Source of the DNA: a virus
Taxonomy: Duplodnaviria > Heunggongvirae > Uroviricota > Caudoviricetes
DNA length: 12,767 bases
Strand: one strand, 5' to 3'
IMG/VR virus record: IMGVR_UViG_2526164619_000005
Span: 1-12,767 of that record
Position 1 is the stretch's first letter; each line of letters starts with the position of its first letter. Position numbers and translations under genes: made by a program. The notes beneath the pieces were generated by a model that made no database searches, had not been told where the DNA came from, and saw only the letters and a list, made by a program, of their open reading frames with translations. Below, one piece after another: positions 1 through 7,767 of the stretch.

Positions 1-244
1 AATATATCTCGCTCAAGGCGAGCTTCATTTAACGCCTTACGCAGTTGCAGAATTTCAGATTCCAGTTCAGCCACCGTGCGGGAACCAGGAGTACCGAGCC
101 CTTTTCTGGCGGCGGTAACCCATTGTCCTAAAGTGCCTTCAGGAAGGGATAATCGGGAAGCGCCTTCACTGATCGAAAGTTGATTTTCAAGAACCGTTCT
201 GACAGCTTCGGCTTTGAACTCTTTAGAGTAACGTTGGTTTTTTC
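1..244 (-). mobile_element. Partial IS3-family (IS600-like) copy: orfA codons 3-86 on the minus strand, cut by the window edge and by the IS66-family element at 244/245
   Basis: Reverse complement of 1-244 matches 8219-8462 (orfA of the complete copy) base for base as far as I could compare by eye; the match stops exactly where GTAAGCG begins at 245. Confidence 0.85.
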
Positions 245-330
245 GTAAGCGTAAACTGACCGCCGTATGTAGCCATTAAGCCTGTATTGGTAACGTAGGT
301 GCCCACCTTTTCAACTAGTGGACACCTGTT

Positions 331-751
331 ATGGAACAGAAAGCATTATCTGCAGAACCCCGCAGATCATTTTCAAATGAGTTTAAACTTCAAATGGTTA
401 AACTGGCTTCACAACCAGGAGCCTCTGTTGCCCGTATTGCCCGGGGAACACGATATCAATGATAACCTGCTGTTCAAATGGCTCAGGCTCTGGCAGAACA
501 AAGGGCGCATATCGCGGCGTCTTCCGGTAACAACCTCTTCTGACACTGGCGTTGAATTATTACCTGTGGAGATAACGCCGGATGAGCCGAAAGAACCGGT
601 GGCTGCTCTTACTCCGTCTTTATCTACTCAGACTACAGTTAGTGCCAGCTCCTGCAAGGTGGAGTTCCGTCACGGTAACATGACGCTGGAAAATCCTTCA
701 CCAGAGCTGCTCACAGTGTTGATCCGTGAACTGACCGGGAGGGGACGATGA
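331..751 (+). pseudogene. IS66-family orfA (accessory helix-turn-helix protein), frameshifted
   Basis: ATG at 331 opens a reading frame giving MEQKALSAEPRRSFSNEFKLQMVKLASQPGASVARIAR, which hits a stop at 460-462. The protein continues in the +1 frame (EHDINDNLLFKWLRLWQNKGRISRR... to 751). The switch sits at a run of four G at 443-446, consistent with one extra G. Confidence 0.7.
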
Positions 752-1098
752 TCTCACTCCCGTCAGGCACCCGCATCTGGCTCGTTGCTGGGATAACCGA
801 TATGCGTAAGTCTTTCAACGGGCTGGGTGAACAGGTACAGCATGTGCTGAATGATAATCCCTTCTCCGGTCACCTGTTCATCTTCCGTGGCCGACGGGGT
901 GACATGATTAAAATCCTGTGGGCTGATGCTGATGGTCTGTGCCTGTTCACCAGACGCCTGGAGGAAGGCCAGTTTATCTGGCCTGCTGTGCGTGACGGCA
1001 AGGTATCCATTACCCGCTCGCAACTGGCAATGCTCCTCGATAAGCTGGACTGGCGTCAGCCAAAAACATCCCGCCTTAACGCACTGACAATGTTGTAA
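748..1098 (+). CDS. IS66-family orfB (TnpB-like accessory protein), apparently intact, 116 aa
   Basis: ORF begins MISLPSGTRIWLVAGITDMRKSFNGLGEQV...; its start overlaps the orfA stop (ATGA at 748-751), the usual IS66 arrangement. Confidence 0.8.
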   Translation: MISLPSGTRIWLVAGITDMRKSFNGLGEQVQHVLNDNPFSGHLFIFRGRRGDMIKILWADADGLCLFTRRLEEGQFIWPAVRDGKVSITRSQLAMLLDKLDWRQPKTSRLNALTML

Positions 1099-1128
1099 AA
1101 ATGTCATGGCCGGATTATAAAAACGGCC

Positions 1129-2721
1129 ATGAATCAAAAATACCTCATTCGCATTGCAGAACTGGAATGCCAGCTCCGTCAGAAAGACCAGCAACTGAGT
1201 CTGGTTGAAGAGACGGAGGCCTTCCTGCGCTCTGCACTGGCCCGCGCCGAAGAAAAGATCGAAGAAGATGAACGGGAAATAGAACATCTGCGGGCTCAGA
1301 TAGAAAAACTGCGCCGGATGCTGTTCGGTACCCGTTCTGAAAAACTGCGTCGTGAAGTTGAACAGGCTGAGGCCCTGCTGAAACAAAGCGAACAGGACAG
1401 TGATCGTTACAGTGGGCGGGAAGACGATCCGCAGGTTCCCCGCCAGTTGCGACAGTCTCGTCATCGTCGCCCGTTACCGGAGCATCTGCCCCGCGAAATA
1501 AATCGCCTGGAGCCAGAAGAAAGCTGTTGCCCGGAGTGTGGCGGTGAGCTGGATTATCTGGGGGAAGTCAGCGCAGAACAACTGGAACTGGTGAGCAGCG
1601 CTCTGAAAGTGATCCGCACAGAACGGGTAAAAAAAGCCTGTCCAAAATGTGACTGCATCGTTGAAGCACCGGCACCATCCCGTCCGATAGAGCGTGGTAT
1701 CGCGGGCCCGGGGTTACTTGCCCGCGTGTTAACGGGAAAATACTGCGAACACCTGCCACTGTATCGTCAGAGTGAAATTTTTTGCCCGTCAGGGTGTCGA
1801 ACTGAGCCGTGCATTACTCTCCAACTGGGTTGACGCGTGCTGCCAGTTAATGACGCCGCTGAATGATGCTCTGTACCGTTATGTGATGAACAGCCGCAAA
1901 GTTCACACTGATGACACACCAGTAAAAGTGCTGGCACCGGGCAGGAAGAAGGCGAAAACAGGATATATCTGGACGTATGTCCGGGATGACAGGAATGCCG
2001 GTTCGCCAGAGCCTCCGGCGGTCTGGTTCGCCTACTCACCGGACCATCAGGGTAACATCCGGAGCAGCACCTTAGTCCCTTCCGGGGTATCCTGCAGGCA
2101 GATGCGTTTAATGGTTACGATCGGCTGTTCAGTGCCGAACGAGAAGGCGGCGCGTTGACGGAAGCAGGATGCTGGGCTCATGCGCGGCGCAAAGTCCACG
2201 ATGTATATATCAGTACCAAAAGCGCGACAGCGGAAGAAGCCCTGAAACTAATCGGTGAGCTGTACGCCATCGAGCACGAAATACGCGGGTTGCCGGTGTC
2301 TGAACGCCTGGCGGTCAGGCAAATGCAGAGTAAACTGCTACTGACTTCTCTGTATAAGCTGATGCAGGAGAAAGAACACACGTTATCGAAAAAATGCCGT
2401 CTGAGAGATGCGTTCCGGTATATCAGGAAGCACTGGGTTGCGTTGTGCAACTTCAGTGATGATGGTCTGGCTGAGGCGGATAATAATGCCGCGGAAAGAG
2501 CGCGTCGTGCAGTCTGTCTCGGAAAGAAAAACTTTATGTTCTTCGGCAGCGATCACGGTGGAGAGCGTGGTGCGCTACTGTACGGGCTGATCGGCACCTG
2601 CCGACTGAACGGTATCGATCCGGAAGCGTATCTGCGCTATATCCTGAGCGTACTGCCGGAATGGCCTTCCAACCGTGTTGACGAACTCCTGCCATGGAAC
2701 GTAGCACTCACCAATAAATAA
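1129..2721 (+). pseudogene. IS66-family transposase (orfC/TnpC) broken into three ORFs by two single-base indels
   Basis: Three pieces (1129-1833, 1772-2158, 2155-2721) together read as one transposase (zinc-finger-like CPECGG...CPKCD motif, then ...YIWTYVRDD..., ...AGCWAHARRK...). The frame changes +1 at a run of six T (1778-1783) and returns at a two-A site (2054-2055, ggtaacatcc). Confidence 0.75.
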
Positions 2722-2809
2722 GCGTCAATACGGTGCTCCGTTGACGCTGATATGACTTTCCGTGTCAAACCGGAATCTCTAATTTTGACGATTTTCTTTT
2801 TAGGTTTAA

Positions 2810-2996
2810 TTCCCTGAGGGCGACGTAGCAGTAAATCCGACGGTGAATCACGCTGATATTCGCGGGTTGGATACCGCATTACAGAGGTCCGTCATATGAG
2901 CCTGCCACTTTCTTACGTCGCGAATCAGCTTTGTTCCGCCGTCGCCAAGCGCTAACGTGGGTTACTCTTGTACCGGGCTACGTCGCCTTCAGGGAA
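2810..2996. repeat. Pair of 20-bp inverted repeats (2810-2829 ttccctgagggcgacgtagc; 2977-2996 gctacgtcgccttcagggaa) flanking a 147-bp spacer
   Basis: The arms are reverse complements with one mismatch. They lie between the IS66 transposase stop and the IS110-family transposase stop; meaning unknown. Confidence 0.5.
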
Positions 2997-3013
2997 CTGG
3001 TTATTCTCATTTT

Positions 3014-4141
3014 TTATTTGTGACATTGTGGTTGTTGTGCGACAGACATTGCTATTCGGCCCATATCCCAGATAAAACCCGCCAGCTCACGTGCAACAGC
3101 AACAATTGTAATATTGACATTCTTTCCTTTGGCCTGAAGTTTTCGATACCTCTTACAAAGCCTGAGTTGAGCATCCCATGCTCTGTCAATGACGGGGCGG
3201 GGTAAATTTTCCTGCCTTTTTTGTATTGCCGGACTGATGCGTGCCGGATGACGGTAACTCCACGCTGCCTCGACCAATAGCTTTCTGGCATAGCTGTTTC
3301 CGGCTTTGGTAATGCTGCCCTGATGTCTGCTTCCACCCGATGAATATTCTGATGGCGTGATACCAAACCATGACATCAGTTGTCGTGGATGTTCAAAACG
3401 GGTCAGATCACCCAGTTCAGAAATTAATCCAACCGCAGTAATAAACTGAATCCCTCGCATGGCTTGCAGCGCCTCTACTACCGGATACAGCCTCCATTCG
3501 GTAACGGCCTCCTTCAGGGCGGATTCCAGCCGTTCACATTGTGCCTGCCGGTCTTCTATTGTACGACGGTGTTCGTCAAAAGCTAATTGTCGCCAGGGAC
3601 TTTCGAATGAGTATTTGCTGAGCCAGCGTCGGTGTGCAGGGCCCCAATCTGCTCGCCCGACATAATGGACCCCATGAACCAGAAGAAACGATTTCAGACG
3701 TTGCCTTGCATGCCGTAAATCATCGCGGGCAGATGCCCATGCCCGGGCCAAATCCCGGAATGCCTCATCTTCAATGCCGGGTACGTAGACAGCAGAAAGA
3801 TCTCCTGCACGCAGTGAACGCACAAGTCTGATGGCATCACGGCGATCGGTTTTAACCCGCTCCCCCGGTTTTTTCGGGATAAGTGAGGGGGCGCAGACCA
3901 TGCAGTCAAAACCGGATTTCACCAGCCGACGATAAAGTCCATAACCACAGGGCCACGCTTCATAAACGATACTGACCTGCGATGACTTTGACCTGAGACG
4001 TTTACAAAGATTCTGAATATCAGTAGGTGATGTGCCAATTTTACCCATCAGTTCAACAGGTTCTGAATTGATAGCATAAGCGACAGTAATCGATTCTTTG
4101 TGAACATCTAACCCGACGTACAATGTGTTATTGTTGTTCAT
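3014..4141 (-). CDS. IS110-family transposase (DEDD type), 375 aa, apparently intact
   Basis: Begins MNNNNTLYVGLDVHKESITVAYA... (IS110 N-terminal motif) and has the family's C-terminal region (...GIQFITAVGLISELGDLTRFEHPRQLMSWFGITPSEYSSGG...). GGAGG ribosome-binding site upstream of the ATG at 4139-4141. The six-frame ORF extends to 4189 but the first ATG with a ribosome-binding site is used here. Element boundaries not determined. Confidence 0.85.
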   Translation of the reverse strand: MNNNNTLYVGLDVHKESITVAYAINSEPVELMGKIGTSPTDIQNLCKRLRSKSSQVSIVYEAWPCGYGLYRRLVKSGFDCMVCAPSLIPKKPGERVKTDRRDAIRLVRSLRAGDLSAVYVPGIEDEAFRDLARAWASARDDLRHARQRLKSFLLVHGVHYVGRADWGPAHRRWLSKYSFESPWRQLAFDEHRRTIEDRQAQCERLESALKEAVTEWRLYPVVEALQAMRGIQFITAVGLISELGDLTRFEHPRQLMSWFGITPSEYSSGGSRHQGSITKAGNSYARKLLVEAAWSYRHPARISPAIQKRQENLPRPVIDRAWDAQLRLCKRYRKLQAKGKNVNITIVAVARELAGFIWDMGRIAMSVAQQPQCHK

Positions 4142-4356
4142 GCTGGCCTCCGTGGTGGAAATACCGGGGTGTAGCAACAGCTCACCCATGCGGCTCTGAC
4201 AACGATGTTAACCCGCGTTAAATATCCCACGTTGGCCAGCATCTGTCTCACGGAAAGTCATACTGCCTTACTATCGTATTGATTGATCTGCATCAAATTA
4301 ACGTAAAAGCAACTTCAGATAATACAAATCAGCAACACTGAATATGGGGAAACATT

Positions 4357-4557
4357 ATGTCATCAAAGAACAGAACCCGCAGAACAACAACCCGCAACAT
4401 CCGATTTCCAAACCCGATGATTGAACAAATTAACATCGCTCTTGATCTGAAAGGTTCAGGAAACTTTTCAGCGTGGGTTATTGAAGCCTGCAGGAGAAGG
4501 CTGGCAACAGATGCAACGCATCTGCGCCCGGCCAGCATGAAAAATAACGAGAAATGA
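4357..4557 (+). CDS. Small YlcI-like protein (DUF3950-type, likely ribbon-helix-helix DNA binding), 66 aa
   Basis: MSSKNRTRRTTTRNIRFPNPMIEQINIALDLKGSGNFSAWVIEACRRRL... resembles, from memory, prophage DLP12 YlcI. GGGGA ribosome-binding site before the ATG. Confidence 0.55.
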   Translation: MSSKNRTRRTTTRNIRFPNPMIEQINIALDLKGSGNFSAWVIEACRRRLATDATHLRPASMKNNEK

Positions 4558-4688
4558 ACGTTCGGTTACAGGAGCAGGTACCCACTGTCCTCCAACAATA
4601 TTTCATCTTCATATCCGACGGAACAAGACTTACCCTGCCGGGATGTACAGAATAACAACAGAGTGATAATTAATTTCTGATGAAATAA

Positions 4689-5015
4689 TCAGGGTGCAGA
4701 AGGACTAAAGATAAACGTTTTCTTCACGCCTTTACACGGCCTGTCCTTCTCAAATCGCCATTTTGCCATCGCCTTTACAACCTGCTCATCAAACAAATGG
4801 TGCGGCTCTGAACGGATAAACTCAATTCGAGTGACAGTACCATCAGCACCAATATCAAACTTCACATCAACCCGTCCCTTTATATAATTTGCCGCTGCAT
4901 AGGCCGGATATTGTGGTAATGCCTTAACCAACTGTCGGGGCATATCTGTTTTATGTTGCGTACAGCCCATAACCAGAGAAGACAACAAAATAATTAACGG
5001 AAGGTTTCTTTTCAT
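4689..5015 (-). CDS. Lipoprotein with a TonB C-terminal-like domain, about 108 aa
   Basis: N-terminus MKRNLPLIILLSSLVMGC has signal-peptide character with a lipobox-like VMGC. The body (PQYPAYAAANYIKGRVDVKFDIGADGTVTRIEFIRSEPHHLFDEQVVKAMAKWRFE) aligns motif by motif with the E. coli TonB C-terminal domain as I recall it. Start could be ATG 5021 or 5015; the ORF track's 5030 start is a GTG. Confidence 0.7.
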   Translation of the reverse strand: MKRNLPLIILLSSLVMGCTQHKTDMPRQLVKALPQYPAYAAANYIKGRVDVKFDIGADGTVTRIEFIRSEPHHLFDEQVVKAMAKWRFEKDRPCKGVKKTFIFSPSAP

Positions 5016-5035
5016 TTTCATTCCCGGCACAGATA

Positions 5036-5078
5036 AGAATAAGTCTTATTCTAACAATGCCACCCTGTCGGTCATCAA
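5036..5078 (-). promoter_or_regulatory. Putative sigma70-type promoter plus perfect palindrome (AGAATAAG-T-CTTATTCT, 5036-5052) upstream of the lipoprotein gene
   Basis: On the minus strand: TTGATG (5073-5078), then TAGAAT (5048-5053) with a 19-nt spacer, longer than optimal. The 8-bp-arm palindrome overlaps the -10 element, as an operator would. Confidence 0.3.
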
Positions 5079-5359
5079 TCCTCTGCTTAATGGCAACGAC
5101 AATTATCCGACTTAAATCACAAATCAGACACATGACATAACAGAGCTTGCGAGGTAACACATCGTCCGGTTTCTTCCACCATCGCACCGGACCAGCGACC
5201 ATGAGGGGACAACGCCGCGCTCCGTTAACGCGGTAAACCCCGGTGTGTATCGTTTTTGATTATCCCCGCACACTCGCGCAGAGGAGTCTCCCGGTCGGGC
5301 TGCGGTCTCTGTTAATGCGGGGATACGGCGACAATACCGCGCATGGTTAATAAGGTCGC

Positions 5360-5583
5360 TCAACACACTGGCTGTAATGCAGCGGATACCATGCGGCATT
5401 TAGCGGCATTCATCGTACACTCAACGGTTAGCTCTTCATTCGTGGCATTCACCTGAAAGGTCCGGGAGTGTAATTGCGTACATTTACCACTGAACGAACC
5501 TTCAACAAGAACACGACCACGCTGCAAAATACGGAACGGAATTGTTCCCTGAAAAGGCTTTACGGTTACCAGTAATTTCTTCA
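5360..5583 (-). CDS. Hypothetical 74-aa protein downstream of Rz
   Basis: ATG at 5581-5583 preceded by a GGAGA ribosome-binding site; MKKLLVTVKPFQGTIPFRILQRGRVLVEGSFSGKCTQLHSRTF.... No family recognised. Confidence 0.4.
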
Positions 5584-5607
5584 TGCATTCTCCGGATAAC
5601 AAAAATA

Positions 5608-6081
5608 CTAGTTAATACACTGAGTGCGGATATATTCCTGCGCCCCTTCCAGTTGCTTCTGCATTGTCATCAACCGCTCTCTGAGGGTGAAATAATCCCG
5701 TTCAGCGGTGTCTGCCAGTCGGGGGCCGGTTGCATTATCCATTCCGGAGGTGCCGGTGGCTTCACGCACGGTACCGGAGCAGGTGGCGTTGATCCGCAGG
5801 CGCTTACGACCAGCGGCAACATCAGCACGCAGAGTTTCATTTTCAGCTCTCGCATCGGCTAATTCCCTTGAGTATCTGGCATCAAGCGCAGCAACATCAC
5901 GCTGGCGCTGCTGCATGTCAGTAATGGTTGCGTTTGCCAGCTCCAGCTCTCTGGCTTTTTTATCGCGCTGCGCTTTGTAGGTGATGGCGTTATCACGGTA
6001 ATGGTCTGTTGCCAGCCACAGCGCACCACAGACCACCAGCAGAATAACGGTAAACGCGGAAAGCATTCGGTTTATGTTCAC
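5608..6081 (-). CDS. Rz: Rz inner-membrane spanin (i-spanin), lambda-like
   Basis: ...[55 protein letters not shown]...[27 protein letters not shown] matches lambda Rz closely from memory. Start is either GTG 6079-6081 or ATG 6064-6066. Confidence 0.85.
5670..5840 (-). CDS. Rz1: Rz1 outer-membrane lipoprotein spanin (o-spanin), embedded in Rz in the +1 frame
   Basis: [56 protein letters not shown]: lipobox, proline-rich, same architecture as lambda Rz1. Confidence 0.8.
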
Positions 6082-6209
6082 CCCAGCAGCCCCGACGAAG
6101 ACAACATCATCCAGGCCATGGAAAGAAAAAGAGCAACCAGCATTAGTGAAAATGAAATGCCGACAATTACACAGAGGATCTTCGCCAGCGTTATGAGTTT
6201 GTCTGACAT
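6078..6209 (-). CDS. 43-aa hydrophobic single-helix membrane peptide
   Basis: [49 protein letters not shown] ribosome-binding site 8 nt upstream; its TGA stop overlaps the GTG start of Rz (GTGA). Confidence 0.45.
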
Positions 6210-6223
6210 GCTTAATCCTCCCT

Positions 6224-6406
6224 TCACGATTTCAACGCAATGACCAGTTTTGCCAGCCCATACAGCATCGGGGACACAGCAACACCGACCGCCACCCACT
6301 TAATGGCAAAAGCCAGTGCTCTGCTGATGTCATCAGTTACAGGCGCTTTCAGTTCAAGGCCGTTTTTCATGGTCAACCTCAACAGAATTCGTTTATACTT
6401 CGCCAT
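6224..6406 (-). CDS. 61-aa small protein with a C-terminal hydrophobic helix
   Basis: [66 protein letters not shown] ribosome-binding site upstream; stop is 14 nt before the 43-aa ORF. Confidence 0.45.
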
Positions 6407-6432
6407 GTTCTCCCTTGCCTTACTCAAGGTCA

Positions 6433-6467
6433 GAAACACAAAACCCCGCTTGGTGCCAACAAACGGG
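6433..6467 (-). terminator. Rho-independent-type terminator hairpin (minus strand), between endolysin and the small ORFs
   Basis: Minus-strand RNA: 8-bp stem CCCGUUUG/CAAGCGGG (one G-U pair), loop UUGGCAC, then GUUUUGUGUUUC. The plus strand also shows a hairpin followed by TTTTTT (6468-6473). Confidence 0.55.
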
Positions 6468-6604
6468 TTTTTTACTTTTATTCACTTACGTTTCGCCAGT
6501 TCGCAGGATTTCGTGTTATCCGTCCGCGTGCTCATGTCTTATTTTTCAGCAAAATATTCTGCTTATCTGTCGATGTCCCAGCACGCCAGCGCACTTTCCT
6601 GGTC

Positions 6605-7096
6605 TCACCGGGATACCTGACCGTAGCAATTATTTGAGCGGATACGGCAGTCTCTGCCACCGTCCTTAATCCACCAGCGAATCGCTTCGCATGCTCCCCT
6701 GCGGTCACCAGCATTAATCCGTCTGTAAAACGTCGACGGGAAACACTTACCGGGGCCAATGTTATAGGGACAAAATGACGCGATACCCGCTTTCTGGGGT
6801 TCGGTCAGCGGCACTTTAATATTGCGCTCCACCCATGCCAGCGCCTTATCACGCTCAATGGCGTTGACCTGGTCGCATTTTTCCTTCGACAACTTCATGC
6901 CCGGGACGACAGGTTTACTATCCACCAGGATGGCACCGCGGCAGATGGTCCAGATACCCGCGCCATCACGGTATGCCGTGGTGTGGTTACCTTCCTTTTC
7001 ATCCAGAAACTGGTCGAGGATTTCAGGCGCAGGCGCACCTGCGGCAATCAGCGCCAGAACGGCAGCCGACAGGCCGTATTTGATTTTGGTGTTCAT
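6605..7096 (-). CDS. Phage endolysin (lysozyme) of the signal-anchor-release type, RrrD/P21-like
   Basis: N-terminal hydrophobic anchor (MNTKIKYGLSAAVLALIAAGAPAPE) followed by a lysozyme-like body (...EGNHTTAYRDGAGIWTICRG...). Stop is TGA at 6605-6607 (see findings). Confidence 0.85.
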   Translation of the reverse strand: MNTKIKYGLSAAVLALIAAGAPAPEILDQFLDEKEGNHTTAYRDGAGIWTICRGAILVDSKPVVPGMKLSKEKCDQVNAIERDKALAWVERNIKVPLTEPQKAGIASFCPYNIGPGKCFPSTFYRRINAGDRRGACEAIRWWIKDGGRDCRIRSNNCYGQVSR

Positions 7097-7138
7097 GGAT
7101 ATTTATCAGGGTTTATCGATTTCAAATCCCTGGATATG

Positions 7139-7471
7139 TTAAGTCTTCAGAGAACCAGTAATTATTCCCGGTAGTTTTCCTCTGTAGGTTATCAACACAT
7201 CCTGCGCCTCTAAAATTACGGGGCGCTTTTCCGGCAACGGACCATCCCCTTCACATAACCCGGCAGCAACATCCATGAAAAACTGCTTCGCCTGCTTTTT
7301 CGCCTCAGCTTCGTAAAACTCCAGCGTGGCATCTTCAGTACGGTCAAGACTAATCGCCACATCTGGCAACAACAGTGACGGACACCCACCAATTTCCAGT
7401 GCCACAGTAACAGTAATCTTATTCGGGTAATTATTTATCCCTTTAACAACCAGTTCGTATTTTTTCTTCAT
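7139..7471 (-). CDS. Hypothetical 110-aa protein between holin and endolysin (possibly YdfR/DUF1327-like by position)
   Basis: ATG 7469-7471 with GGGGAGAG ribosome-binding site, 4 nt after the holin stop. MKKKYELVVKGINNYPNKITVTVALEIGGCPSLLLPD.... Family assignment is by synteny memory only. Confidence 0.55.
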   Translation of the reverse strand: MKKKYELVVKGINNYPNKITVTVALEIGGCPSLLLPDVAISLDRTEDATLEFYEAEAKKQAKQFFMDVAAGLCEGDGPLPEKRPVILEAQDVLITYRGKLPGIITGSLKT

Positions 7472-7475
7472 CGCT

Positions 7476-7691
7476 TTACTCTCCCCGCGCCGCCTTACGA
7501 CGGTCCTCTCTGATTTTGAAATACAGGTTAGTCAGATATGTCAGCAGCCCAAACAACAGACTCCCCAGCACGCCTATTGCCGCCCACTGAGACGGGGAAA
7601 CCCTGTCCAGCAACTGCAGGAACCAGTAGCCCGTTCCCACCGCAGATGTGGTGTATGACACACCTGTTGTGATTTTTTCCATCTGGTACAT
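7476..7691 (-). CDS. Class II holin (S21-like pinholin) with dual-start motif MYQM
   Basis: [71 protein letters not shown]: S21/EssD-like. Two in-frame ATGs (7689-7691 and 7680-7682) would give 71- and 68-aa forms. Confidence 0.85.
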
Positions 7692-7767
7692 ACCCCGTCT
7701 CCCGCAATCCGGAAGCTCACAACAATATAAAGACCACCGGCACACACCGATGGTCCCTTGCGCATGC

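Follow-up and report, generated by a model that had tools for sequence, protein, structure and literature searches.

The window analysed here is a stretch of 12,767 nucleotides (nt) of viral DNA (Duplodnaviria; Heunggongvirae; Uroviricota; Caudoviricetes), namely positions 1 to 12,767 of the IMG/VR virus record IMGVR_UViG_2526164619_000005. The window is a lambdoid prophage remnant, and on its minus strand, downstream of a lysis cassette, it carries an open reading frame (ORF) for a small lipoprotein with the C-terminal domain of TonB. We call this ORF the TonB_C gene. An initial annotation, made from the letters of the sequence, had described a prophage-borne lipoprotein of this kind with a promoter-like region and a palindrome that looked like an operator, and had suggested that the product could serve as a decoy for TonB boxes. 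We describe the protein, its distribution and its genomic setting, and then weigh this suggestion against other functions. The features of the locus are collected in Table 1.

Table 1. Features of the TonB_C locus and the adjoining lysis genes, in window coordinates
Feature	Position	Strand	Basis
TonB_C coding sequence, 108 amino acids (aa), RefSeq 'TonB family protein'	4689..5015	-	ORF list, homologues, ratio of nonsynonymous to synonymous change (dN/dS), IMG/VR identity
Predicted signal peptide and lipobox, residues 1-18, L-V-M-G-C18, Thr at +2	4962..5015	-	direct reading, homologues
Predicted short tether, residues 19-25 (TQHKTDM)	4941..4961	-	model confidence, family Cys-to-YP distance
TonB C-terminal domain, residues 26-104 (= E. 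coli TonB 153-231)	4704..4940	-	profiles, PDB alignment, AlphaFold2, Foldseek
Shine-Dalgarno sequence GGGA	5022..5025	-	direct reading; AGGA at the equivalent place in clade B
Perfect palindrome AGAATAAG-T-CTTATTCT	5036..5052	.	direct reading
Candidate extended -10 element TGtTAGAAT	5048..5056	-	promoter scan; invariant in 83 clade-A loci; TGtCAGAAT in clade B
Weak -35-like hexamer ATGACC	5070..5075	-	promoter scan
Cassette (moron), 604 bp: promoter region, TonB_C lipoprotein gene and 126-nt tail	4563..5166	-	alignment to vB_EcoS-783R2
80-aa ORF (MKKLLVTVKPFQG...) directly after Rz	5360-5602	-	ORF list
Rz	5608-6081	-	window gene annotation
Rz1, embedded in Rz	5670-5855	-	window gene annotation
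Phage lysozyme	6605-7096	-	window gene annotation
DUF1327 gene, 110 aa, between pinholin and endolysin	7139-7471	-	
S21-type pinholin	7476-7745	-	window gene annotation

The TonB_C lipoprotein

On direct reading the ORF spans 4689-5030 if counted from a GTG and 4689-5015 if counted from an ATG. The ATG at 5015 is the likely start, since the Shine-Dalgarno sequence GGGA lies 6 nt upstream of it (direct reading), the RefSeq start in phage JLK-2012 is at the equivalent position, and six related loci have ATA in place of the ATG at 5021, so that the 5015 ATG is the sole in-frame ATG left to them. The product then begins MKRNLPLIILLSSLVMGC... and has 108 aa. Its C-terminus reads ...FIFSPSAP and has no hydrophobic segment (direct reading), and 26 IMG/VR viral contigs encode a product with 100% identity to it.

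Profile searches, alignment and structure prediction all identify the TonB C-terminal domain, whose fold is a sheet of three strands packed on two helices. Pfam PF03544 (TonB_C) matches at E 1.3e-14 (54.8 bits against a cut-off of 24.6) and NCBIfam tonB_Cterm (TIGR01352) at E 1.1e-14 (54.5 bits against a cut-off of 27.1). A search of the PDB returned the C-terminal domain of E. coli TonB at ~1e-16, in an ungapped alignment that equates query residues 26-104 with TonB 153-231. An AlphaFold2 model, built from a 32-sequence alignment, has a predicted local distance difference test score (pLDDT) of 96-98 over the domain. The best PDB matches of this model by Foldseek are 1u07, 2gsk_B and 2grx_C, with a root-mean-square deviation of 1.1-1.4 Å, a target-normalised template modelling (TM) score of 0.88-0.91, and 37-39% identity to these E. 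coli TonB chains. In 2GSK TonB is in complex with BtuB and in 2GRX with FhuA, and in both the last TonB strand pairs with the TonB box. The domain of the phage protein is complete through that last strand (query 97-105 = TonB 224-232).

In the ungapped alignment the YP motif is retained (Y36-P37 = TonB Y163-P164), and so are five aromatic positions that are important for TonB: F180, F202, W213, Y215 and F230 correspond to F53, F75, W86, F88 and F103. P37 and W86 are invariant across the family of 32 homologues.

The rest of TonB is missing. The TonB equivalog models of NCBIfam are matched only in their C-terminal 80 positions, at 49-74 bits against cut-offs of 265-448. The N-terminal transmembrane anchor of TonB is absent, the sole hydrophobic segment at the N-terminus being the 18-residue lipoprotein signal; the proline-rich spacer is absent as well, with 7 residues between Cys18 and the start of the domain. 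Because it is without the membrane anchor and the proline-rich spacer of TonB, the TonB_C lipoprotein, on its predicted architecture, cannot be an energy transducer.

The signal, MKRNLPLIILLSSLVMG-C, has a positively charged n-region, a hydrophobic core and a lipobox that agrees with the pattern [LVI][ASTVI][GAS]C. Cys18 is invariant among the 32 homologues and the lipobox is canonical in 31 of them, while the residue at +2 is always S, T, A or V and never Asp. By the +2 rule of the Lol system, outer-membrane lipoproteins avoid Asp at this position. Since the +2 residue is Thr here and never Asp in the family, we infer under that rule an anchor in the outer membrane's inner leaflet, where the protein would adjoin the periplasmic side of TonB-dependent transporters. 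In the tether between lipid anchor and domain the model confidence starts low, with pLDDT under 50 for residues 19-21, and climbs to a block mean of 81; across the family the distance from Cys to YP is 14-26 residues. Taken together, signal, tether and model predict a mature protein in which a lipid-modified Cys is joined by a 7-residue tether to a TonB C-terminal domain that is complete and well folded.

Profile, structure and lipobox evidence agree, and the minus-strand ORF, the lipoprotein signal and the TonB domain of the initial annotation are real. The search with hidden Markov models that it had named as a check beforehand placed both TonB profiles above their curated cut-offs, and structure prediction recovered the fold it had recognised by motif. 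That the gene is prophage-borne was likewise established, from the lambdoid genes of the window and from phage relatives.

Distribution and selection

Counts of genomes refer to 5426 complete E. coli genomes. The window allele belongs to clade A, found in 417 of these genomes, always on the chromosome and always annotated 'TonB family protein'; it is found also in the Stx1a-converting phages JLK-2012 and Lys8385Vzw. Clade B, 72% identical to clade A, is found in 1225 genomes, including UTI89, where the gene is beside iss. It is present in the classical phage 21, whose record (tags CPT_21_) names the product 'TonB C-terminal domain protein'. Between clade A and the phage 21 (clade B) allele dN/dS is 0.13, with synonymous change (dS) near saturation. 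The gene is under strong purifying selection. Some clade-B metagenome variants (P0012, P0013, P0016, P0018, P0019, P0021) switch frame near codons 86-95 and end in unrelated tails; assembly error, pseudogene formation or a slippery tract may lie behind them.

A profile search and an exhaustive HMMER search outline a family of lipoproteins of 105-135 residues, with full-length members found only in Enterobacterales: in Escherichia, Rahnella, Pantoea, Erwinia, Sodalis and one record labelled Salmonella, and further in Klebsiella, Raoultella, Serratia and Pseudescherichia. Plasmid-borne members occur in Klebsiella, Pantoea, Salmonella and Serratia, one of them on a Klebsiella IncF conjugative plasmid. 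Relatives at 35-50% identity lie between the terminase and lysis cassettes of several unrelated types, immediately following the latter, a slot seen in a Klebsiella phage, a Rahnella prophage, a plasmid-borne Salmonella prophage and a Sodalis prophage. Non-phage chromosomal members, at 38-46% identity, were found in Serratia grimesii (between a CxxCxxCC gene and dsbB-nhaB), Klebsiella sp. I138 and Pantoea agglomerans. Since chromosomal, plasmid and phage members occur across the Enterobacterales, the phage genes are part of an enterobacterial lipoprotein family of older standing and do not stem from recent capture of tonB.

Cassette, promoter and neighbouring sequence

Aligned with phage vB_EcoS-783R2, the 604-bp cassette is one clean insertion with AACCG at both junctions. 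It is a discrete unit made up of the TonB_C gene, the 151 nt upstream of it and the tail. In 783R2 the conserved element that lies upstream of the cassette directly abuts a DUF3950 gene, and in WGPS4 a different short spacer separates the two. At 41-45%, the G+C content of the cassette is below the 55-58% of the flanking element and of Rz. As a discrete insertion the cassette is a moron in the usual sense, morons being independent transcription units added to phage genomes (PMC3594210).

When the upstream regions of clades A and B are compared, the conserved blocks are the extended -10 element with the AAGAC that follows it, and the Shine-Dalgarno sequence. The -35-like hexamer, separated from the extended -10 by a 16-nt spacer, varies within clade A (ATGGCC, ATGATC, ATGCCC) and is not conserved in clade B. 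The promoter scan by itself is at chance level, with 2 sites in 4300-5700 against 2.2 expected. From the comparison of the clades we conclude that the conserved upstream feature would be a promoter -10 and not an operator, and an extended -10 promoter of the gene's own is plausible. No intrinsic terminator is predicted downstream of the TonB_C gene, and from Rz to the gene there is just one terminator-like site, a weak 5-bp stem at 5548-5533. The gene is on the same strand as the late operon, and late read-through is expected for that reason.

The promoter-like region of the initial annotation is borne out by this conservation between clades (TGnTAGAAT / TGnCAGAAT). Its perfect palindrome exists and does overlap the candidate -10, but the operator reading fares worse. 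That this 17-bp palindrome is the operator of a dimeric repressor of the cassette promoter, either Fur or a phage-encoded regulator, is very unlikely. The palindrome covers the predicted promoter from -10 to ~+10, and its region can be aligned with the Fur consensus at 13 of 19 positions. It is also the sole perfect 8+8 palindrome (loop 0-3) in the window; dinucleotide shuffles, however, give 0.89 per window by chance. Clade B (phage 21) is missing a 13-nt stretch that contains the right arm of the palindrome, and within clade A this arm has a mismatch in 6 of 83 loci, varying no less than the flanks do. The operator is unsupported on account of this chance frequency, the missing arm and the mismatches. 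A Fur box at the palindrome was rejected separately: GATAAGAATAAGTCTTATT gives the 13/19 fit, but six sites in the window score at least 13 against 2.2 expected.

Directly upstream of the cassette, between it and the lysis genes, lies a conserved element of ~175 nt (~5165-5340, minus strand). It is present in 398 phage records, among them lambda-like phages, phage 21, mEp460 and Stx1, Stx2 and 933W-like phages, and in 1911 of the E. coli genomes, with as many as 9 copies in a genome. The TonB_C cassette may or may not accompany it; no annotated feature lies under any of the matches listed. Its 3′ edge is sharp, the flanks diverging beyond it, and its indels of 1, 9 and 17 nt indicate that it is not coding. 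Under a five-helix model on 88 distinct variants 95.4% of cells are paired, against 39-60% when the partners are slid. Many of the changes convert U-A or C-G pairs to U-G and are compatible with the late-operon strand only, and one clean double change (CCGG/CCGG to CCUG/CAGG) falls in a terminal hairpin with a conserved loop. Covariation support for the predicted structure is moderate, because the element sequences are closely related. The stability z-score of the single sequence (-0.31) is uninformative, and Rfam 15 gave nothing credible in 4200-5700 or 5140-5360. An anti-sRNA (anti-small-RNA) of the AgvB/AsxR type was considered and rejected, those being located at the PR' moron site and not here. 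A new structured RNA of lambdoid phages is one possible identity of the element, and a recombination boundary sequence is another.

Among the neighbouring genes, the DUF1327 gene splits the pinholin from the endolysin in the window, and the same two genes are contiguous in phage 21. The 80-aa ORF after Rz has no Pfam or NCBIfam match; only its last ~40 nt, which form the 5′ edge of the query, showed conservation, namely with some Stx2 phages and 783R2. On the other side of the cassette an ORF of 66 aa from the DUF3950 / YlcI-YnfO family (4357-4557, plus strand; RFPNPMIEQINIAL...FSAWVIEACRRRL) converges on the TonB_C gene, and judged by eye only it has the look of a ribbon-helix-helix DNA-binding protein. 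A sialate esterase gene lies further along the window on the minus strand. The HNH and terminase genes that come next in intact relatives are absent from the window. Insertion sequences break the prophage at 299-4189, 8212-9368 and 12472-12747, and the TonB_C gene is nevertheless intact; they include an IS66-like element with split transposase ORFs (by RefSeq labels) and IS110-, IS3- and IS1-like transposase ORFs, assigned by eye. No complete E. coli genome covers at least 80% of the whole-window arrangement.

Readings of the function

The best-supported reading of the TonB_C lipoprotein is that it acts as a decoy at TonB boxes and lowers TonB-dependent uptake, a mechanistically reasonable hypothesis in which our confidence falls somewhat short of even. 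The tethered domain would bind TonB boxes by edge-strand pairing, as TonB does, without delivering energy. It would be directed at the TonB boxes of transporters, FhuA, BtuB, FepA and Cir for example, and perhaps also at those of group B colicins on their way into the cell. By competing with the scarce TonB of the host the decoy would reduce TonB-dependent uptake, and the lysogen or the infected cell would be protected from TonB-dependent phages, colicins and microcins. Expression would probably come from the extended -10 promoter in the lysogen and from read-through of the late operon in lytic growth.

With E. coli TonB the phage protein has in common the fold, aligned without gaps over TonB 153-231, and with it the YP motif, the five aromatics and the last strand. 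It differs from TonB in having neither the N-terminal transmembrane helix nor the proline-rich spacer, with no ExbB or ExbD gene nearby; in having a predicted lipid anchor, in the outer membrane as its +2 residue suggests, whereas TonB is held by an inner-membrane helix; in two substitutions taken up below; and in being carried on phages and plasmids. It travels there as a stand-alone gene on temperate phages and conjugative plasmids, as exclusion and immunity genes usually do. Phage 21, a carrier of the gene, uses LamB as its receptor, and LamB does not depend on TonB; exclusion, if any, would therefore be directed against other phages or colicins and not against its own kind.

Two precedents bear on the decoy. 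Llp of T5 and Cor of phi80, N15 and HK022 are, like the phage protein, small phage-encoded outer-membrane lipoproteins, the outer-membrane placement being in our case predicted. They act on a TonB-dependent transporter from the periplasmic side, an established strategy, and block FhuA, the receptor of their own phage, whereas phage 21 uses LamB. If the TonB_C lipoprotein is a decoy its target range would be every TonB-dependent route, against the one receptor of Cor and Llp. No relation to Llp or Cor was found by sequence or by fold, the top 50 PDB fold matches being TonB and TolA domains and weak unrelated chains, with no Llp entry among them.

The second precedent is engineered. As cited in PMC9841981, transporters compete for TonB, which is far scarcer than they are, and iron import by E. 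coli TonB-dependent transporters was inhibited when a periplasmic TonB domain was overexpressed. The same paper cites Howard et al. 2001 (J Bacteriol 183:5885), in which periplasmic TonB fragments, uncoupled from the energy source as the phage protein would be, reportedly inhibited transport through FecA and FhuA, the mechanism proposed for the decoy. The fragments were reportedly soluble, overexpressed laboratory constructs, in contrast to a natural, predicted lipid-tethered protein with a short linker that is under selection.

A wider proposition, which we regard as possible and rate below the decoy reading itself, is that outer-membrane-tethered TonB C-terminal domains make up a widespread family, disseminated by phages and plasmids, whose members inhibit TonB coupling naturally and in a dominant-negative way. 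They would constitute a receptor-independent form of exclusion or immunity, present in ~30% of E. coli genomes, that closes all TonB-dependent ways of entry together: those of T1/phi80-type phages and group B colicins, and also those of many microcins and of siderophore antibiotics.

Several points weigh against a decoy. Q160 and R166 of TonB have been implicated in contacts with the TonB box; at the first of these positions the phage protein has Leu, the position being variable in the family, and at the second it has Tyr, which is nearly invariant in the family. An effective inhibitor of TonB should cost its host iron uptake, which is hard to square with a gene in ~30% of E. coli genomes, pathogens included. 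The constant slot after diverse lysis cassettes could mean a role linked to lysis. The chromosomal members suggest a host function of the family that predates its spread by phages and need not be exclusion. A full-text search of the literature found no paper on the function of this protein. Its absence from other sources may be recorded here too: the phage 21 genome announcement does not discuss it, the PADLOC catalogue of anti-phage defence has no match for it, and the BFVD library of viral structures has none at E <= 1e-3.

Among the alternatives, an envelope or virulence moron of the Bor/Iss type is unlikely, though it survives best. The protein would alter the cell surface, serum survival or envelope tethering, and the TonB fold would be a scaffold or a peptidoglycan-contacting module. 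Bor and Iss occupy the same slot between the lysis genes and cos/terminase and are small lipoproteins with their own expression signals; the TonB_C gene is beside iss in UTI89 and beside bor in phage 21, and chromosomal relatives lie among envelope genes (for an mltB-like SLT protein, dsbB and a glycine-zipper lipoprotein). Bor and Iss are, however, unrelated to it in sequence, and bor runs against the late operon whereas the TonB_C gene runs with it. Conservation follows the TonB core and the YP motif and not a new surface, and the very short tether suits action at the bases of transporters.

The tethered domain might instead poison TonB itself, forming a heterodimer with the C-terminal domain of host TonB that is held unproductively at the outer membrane. 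Fewer decoy molecules would be needed for this, given the scarcity of TonB relative to the transporters (PMC9841981), and the periplasmic domains of TonB homodimerise at one stage of the energy cycle (bioRxiv 10.1101/2022.09.26.509584). The AlphaFold model, on the other hand, fits the monomeric fold of the 1U07 type, and the phenotype would be hard to separate from competition for TonB boxes. We consider this mechanism decidedly unlikely.

A role as a lysis accessory, in which an outer-membrane lipoprotein made along with the lysis cassette would act like a spanin or modulate spanins, is highly improbable. PHROG 1267 ('Rz-like spanin') matches the whole protein at 7.7e-43, and the gene follows, on the same strand, holin, endolysin and spanin genes of several unrelated types in five genera. 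Like the o-spanins of the Rz1 type, the product is a lipoprotein encoded near the lysis cassette; unlike theirs, its gene is neither embedded in nor paired with an i-spanin gene, and stands alone ~590 bp downstream of an Rz/Rz1 pair that is already complete in the window (Table 1). Nor does a globular domain of 90 residues with no C-terminal transmembrane segment resemble an o- or u-spanin. The phage 21 record, besides naming a TonB C-terminal domain, annotates separate spanins. The PHROG label is probably an annotation propagated by position near lysis genes, and 'Rz-like spanin' has been given also to an ORF over the nearby non-coding element (VT2phi_272, 1476-1721). That the gene is a functionless, decaying remnant of a captured tonB fragment is scarcely credible: the prophage of the window is full of insertion sequences and has lost the terminase genes of intact relatives, but dN/dS is low at near-saturated dS, the lipobox is invariant, and intact copies of the gene are present in ~1600 complete E. 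coli genomes as well as in functional phages, phage 21 among them.

The TonB_C gene is a very common, uncharacterised prophage gene. If the decoy reading is true and its product damps TonB coupling, the gene would represent a new kind of lysogenic conversion, one that disables an energy-coupling step common to many receptors. It would bear on how colicin and microcin warfare plays out in the gut, on the host range of TonB-dependent therapeutic phages and on the uptake of siderophore-conjugated antibiotics of the cefiderocol type. It would bear also on iron acquisition in pathogenic E. coli, the gene being present in UTI89 and in Stx1 phages, and the protein would be a natural reagent for probing how TonB boxes are engaged.

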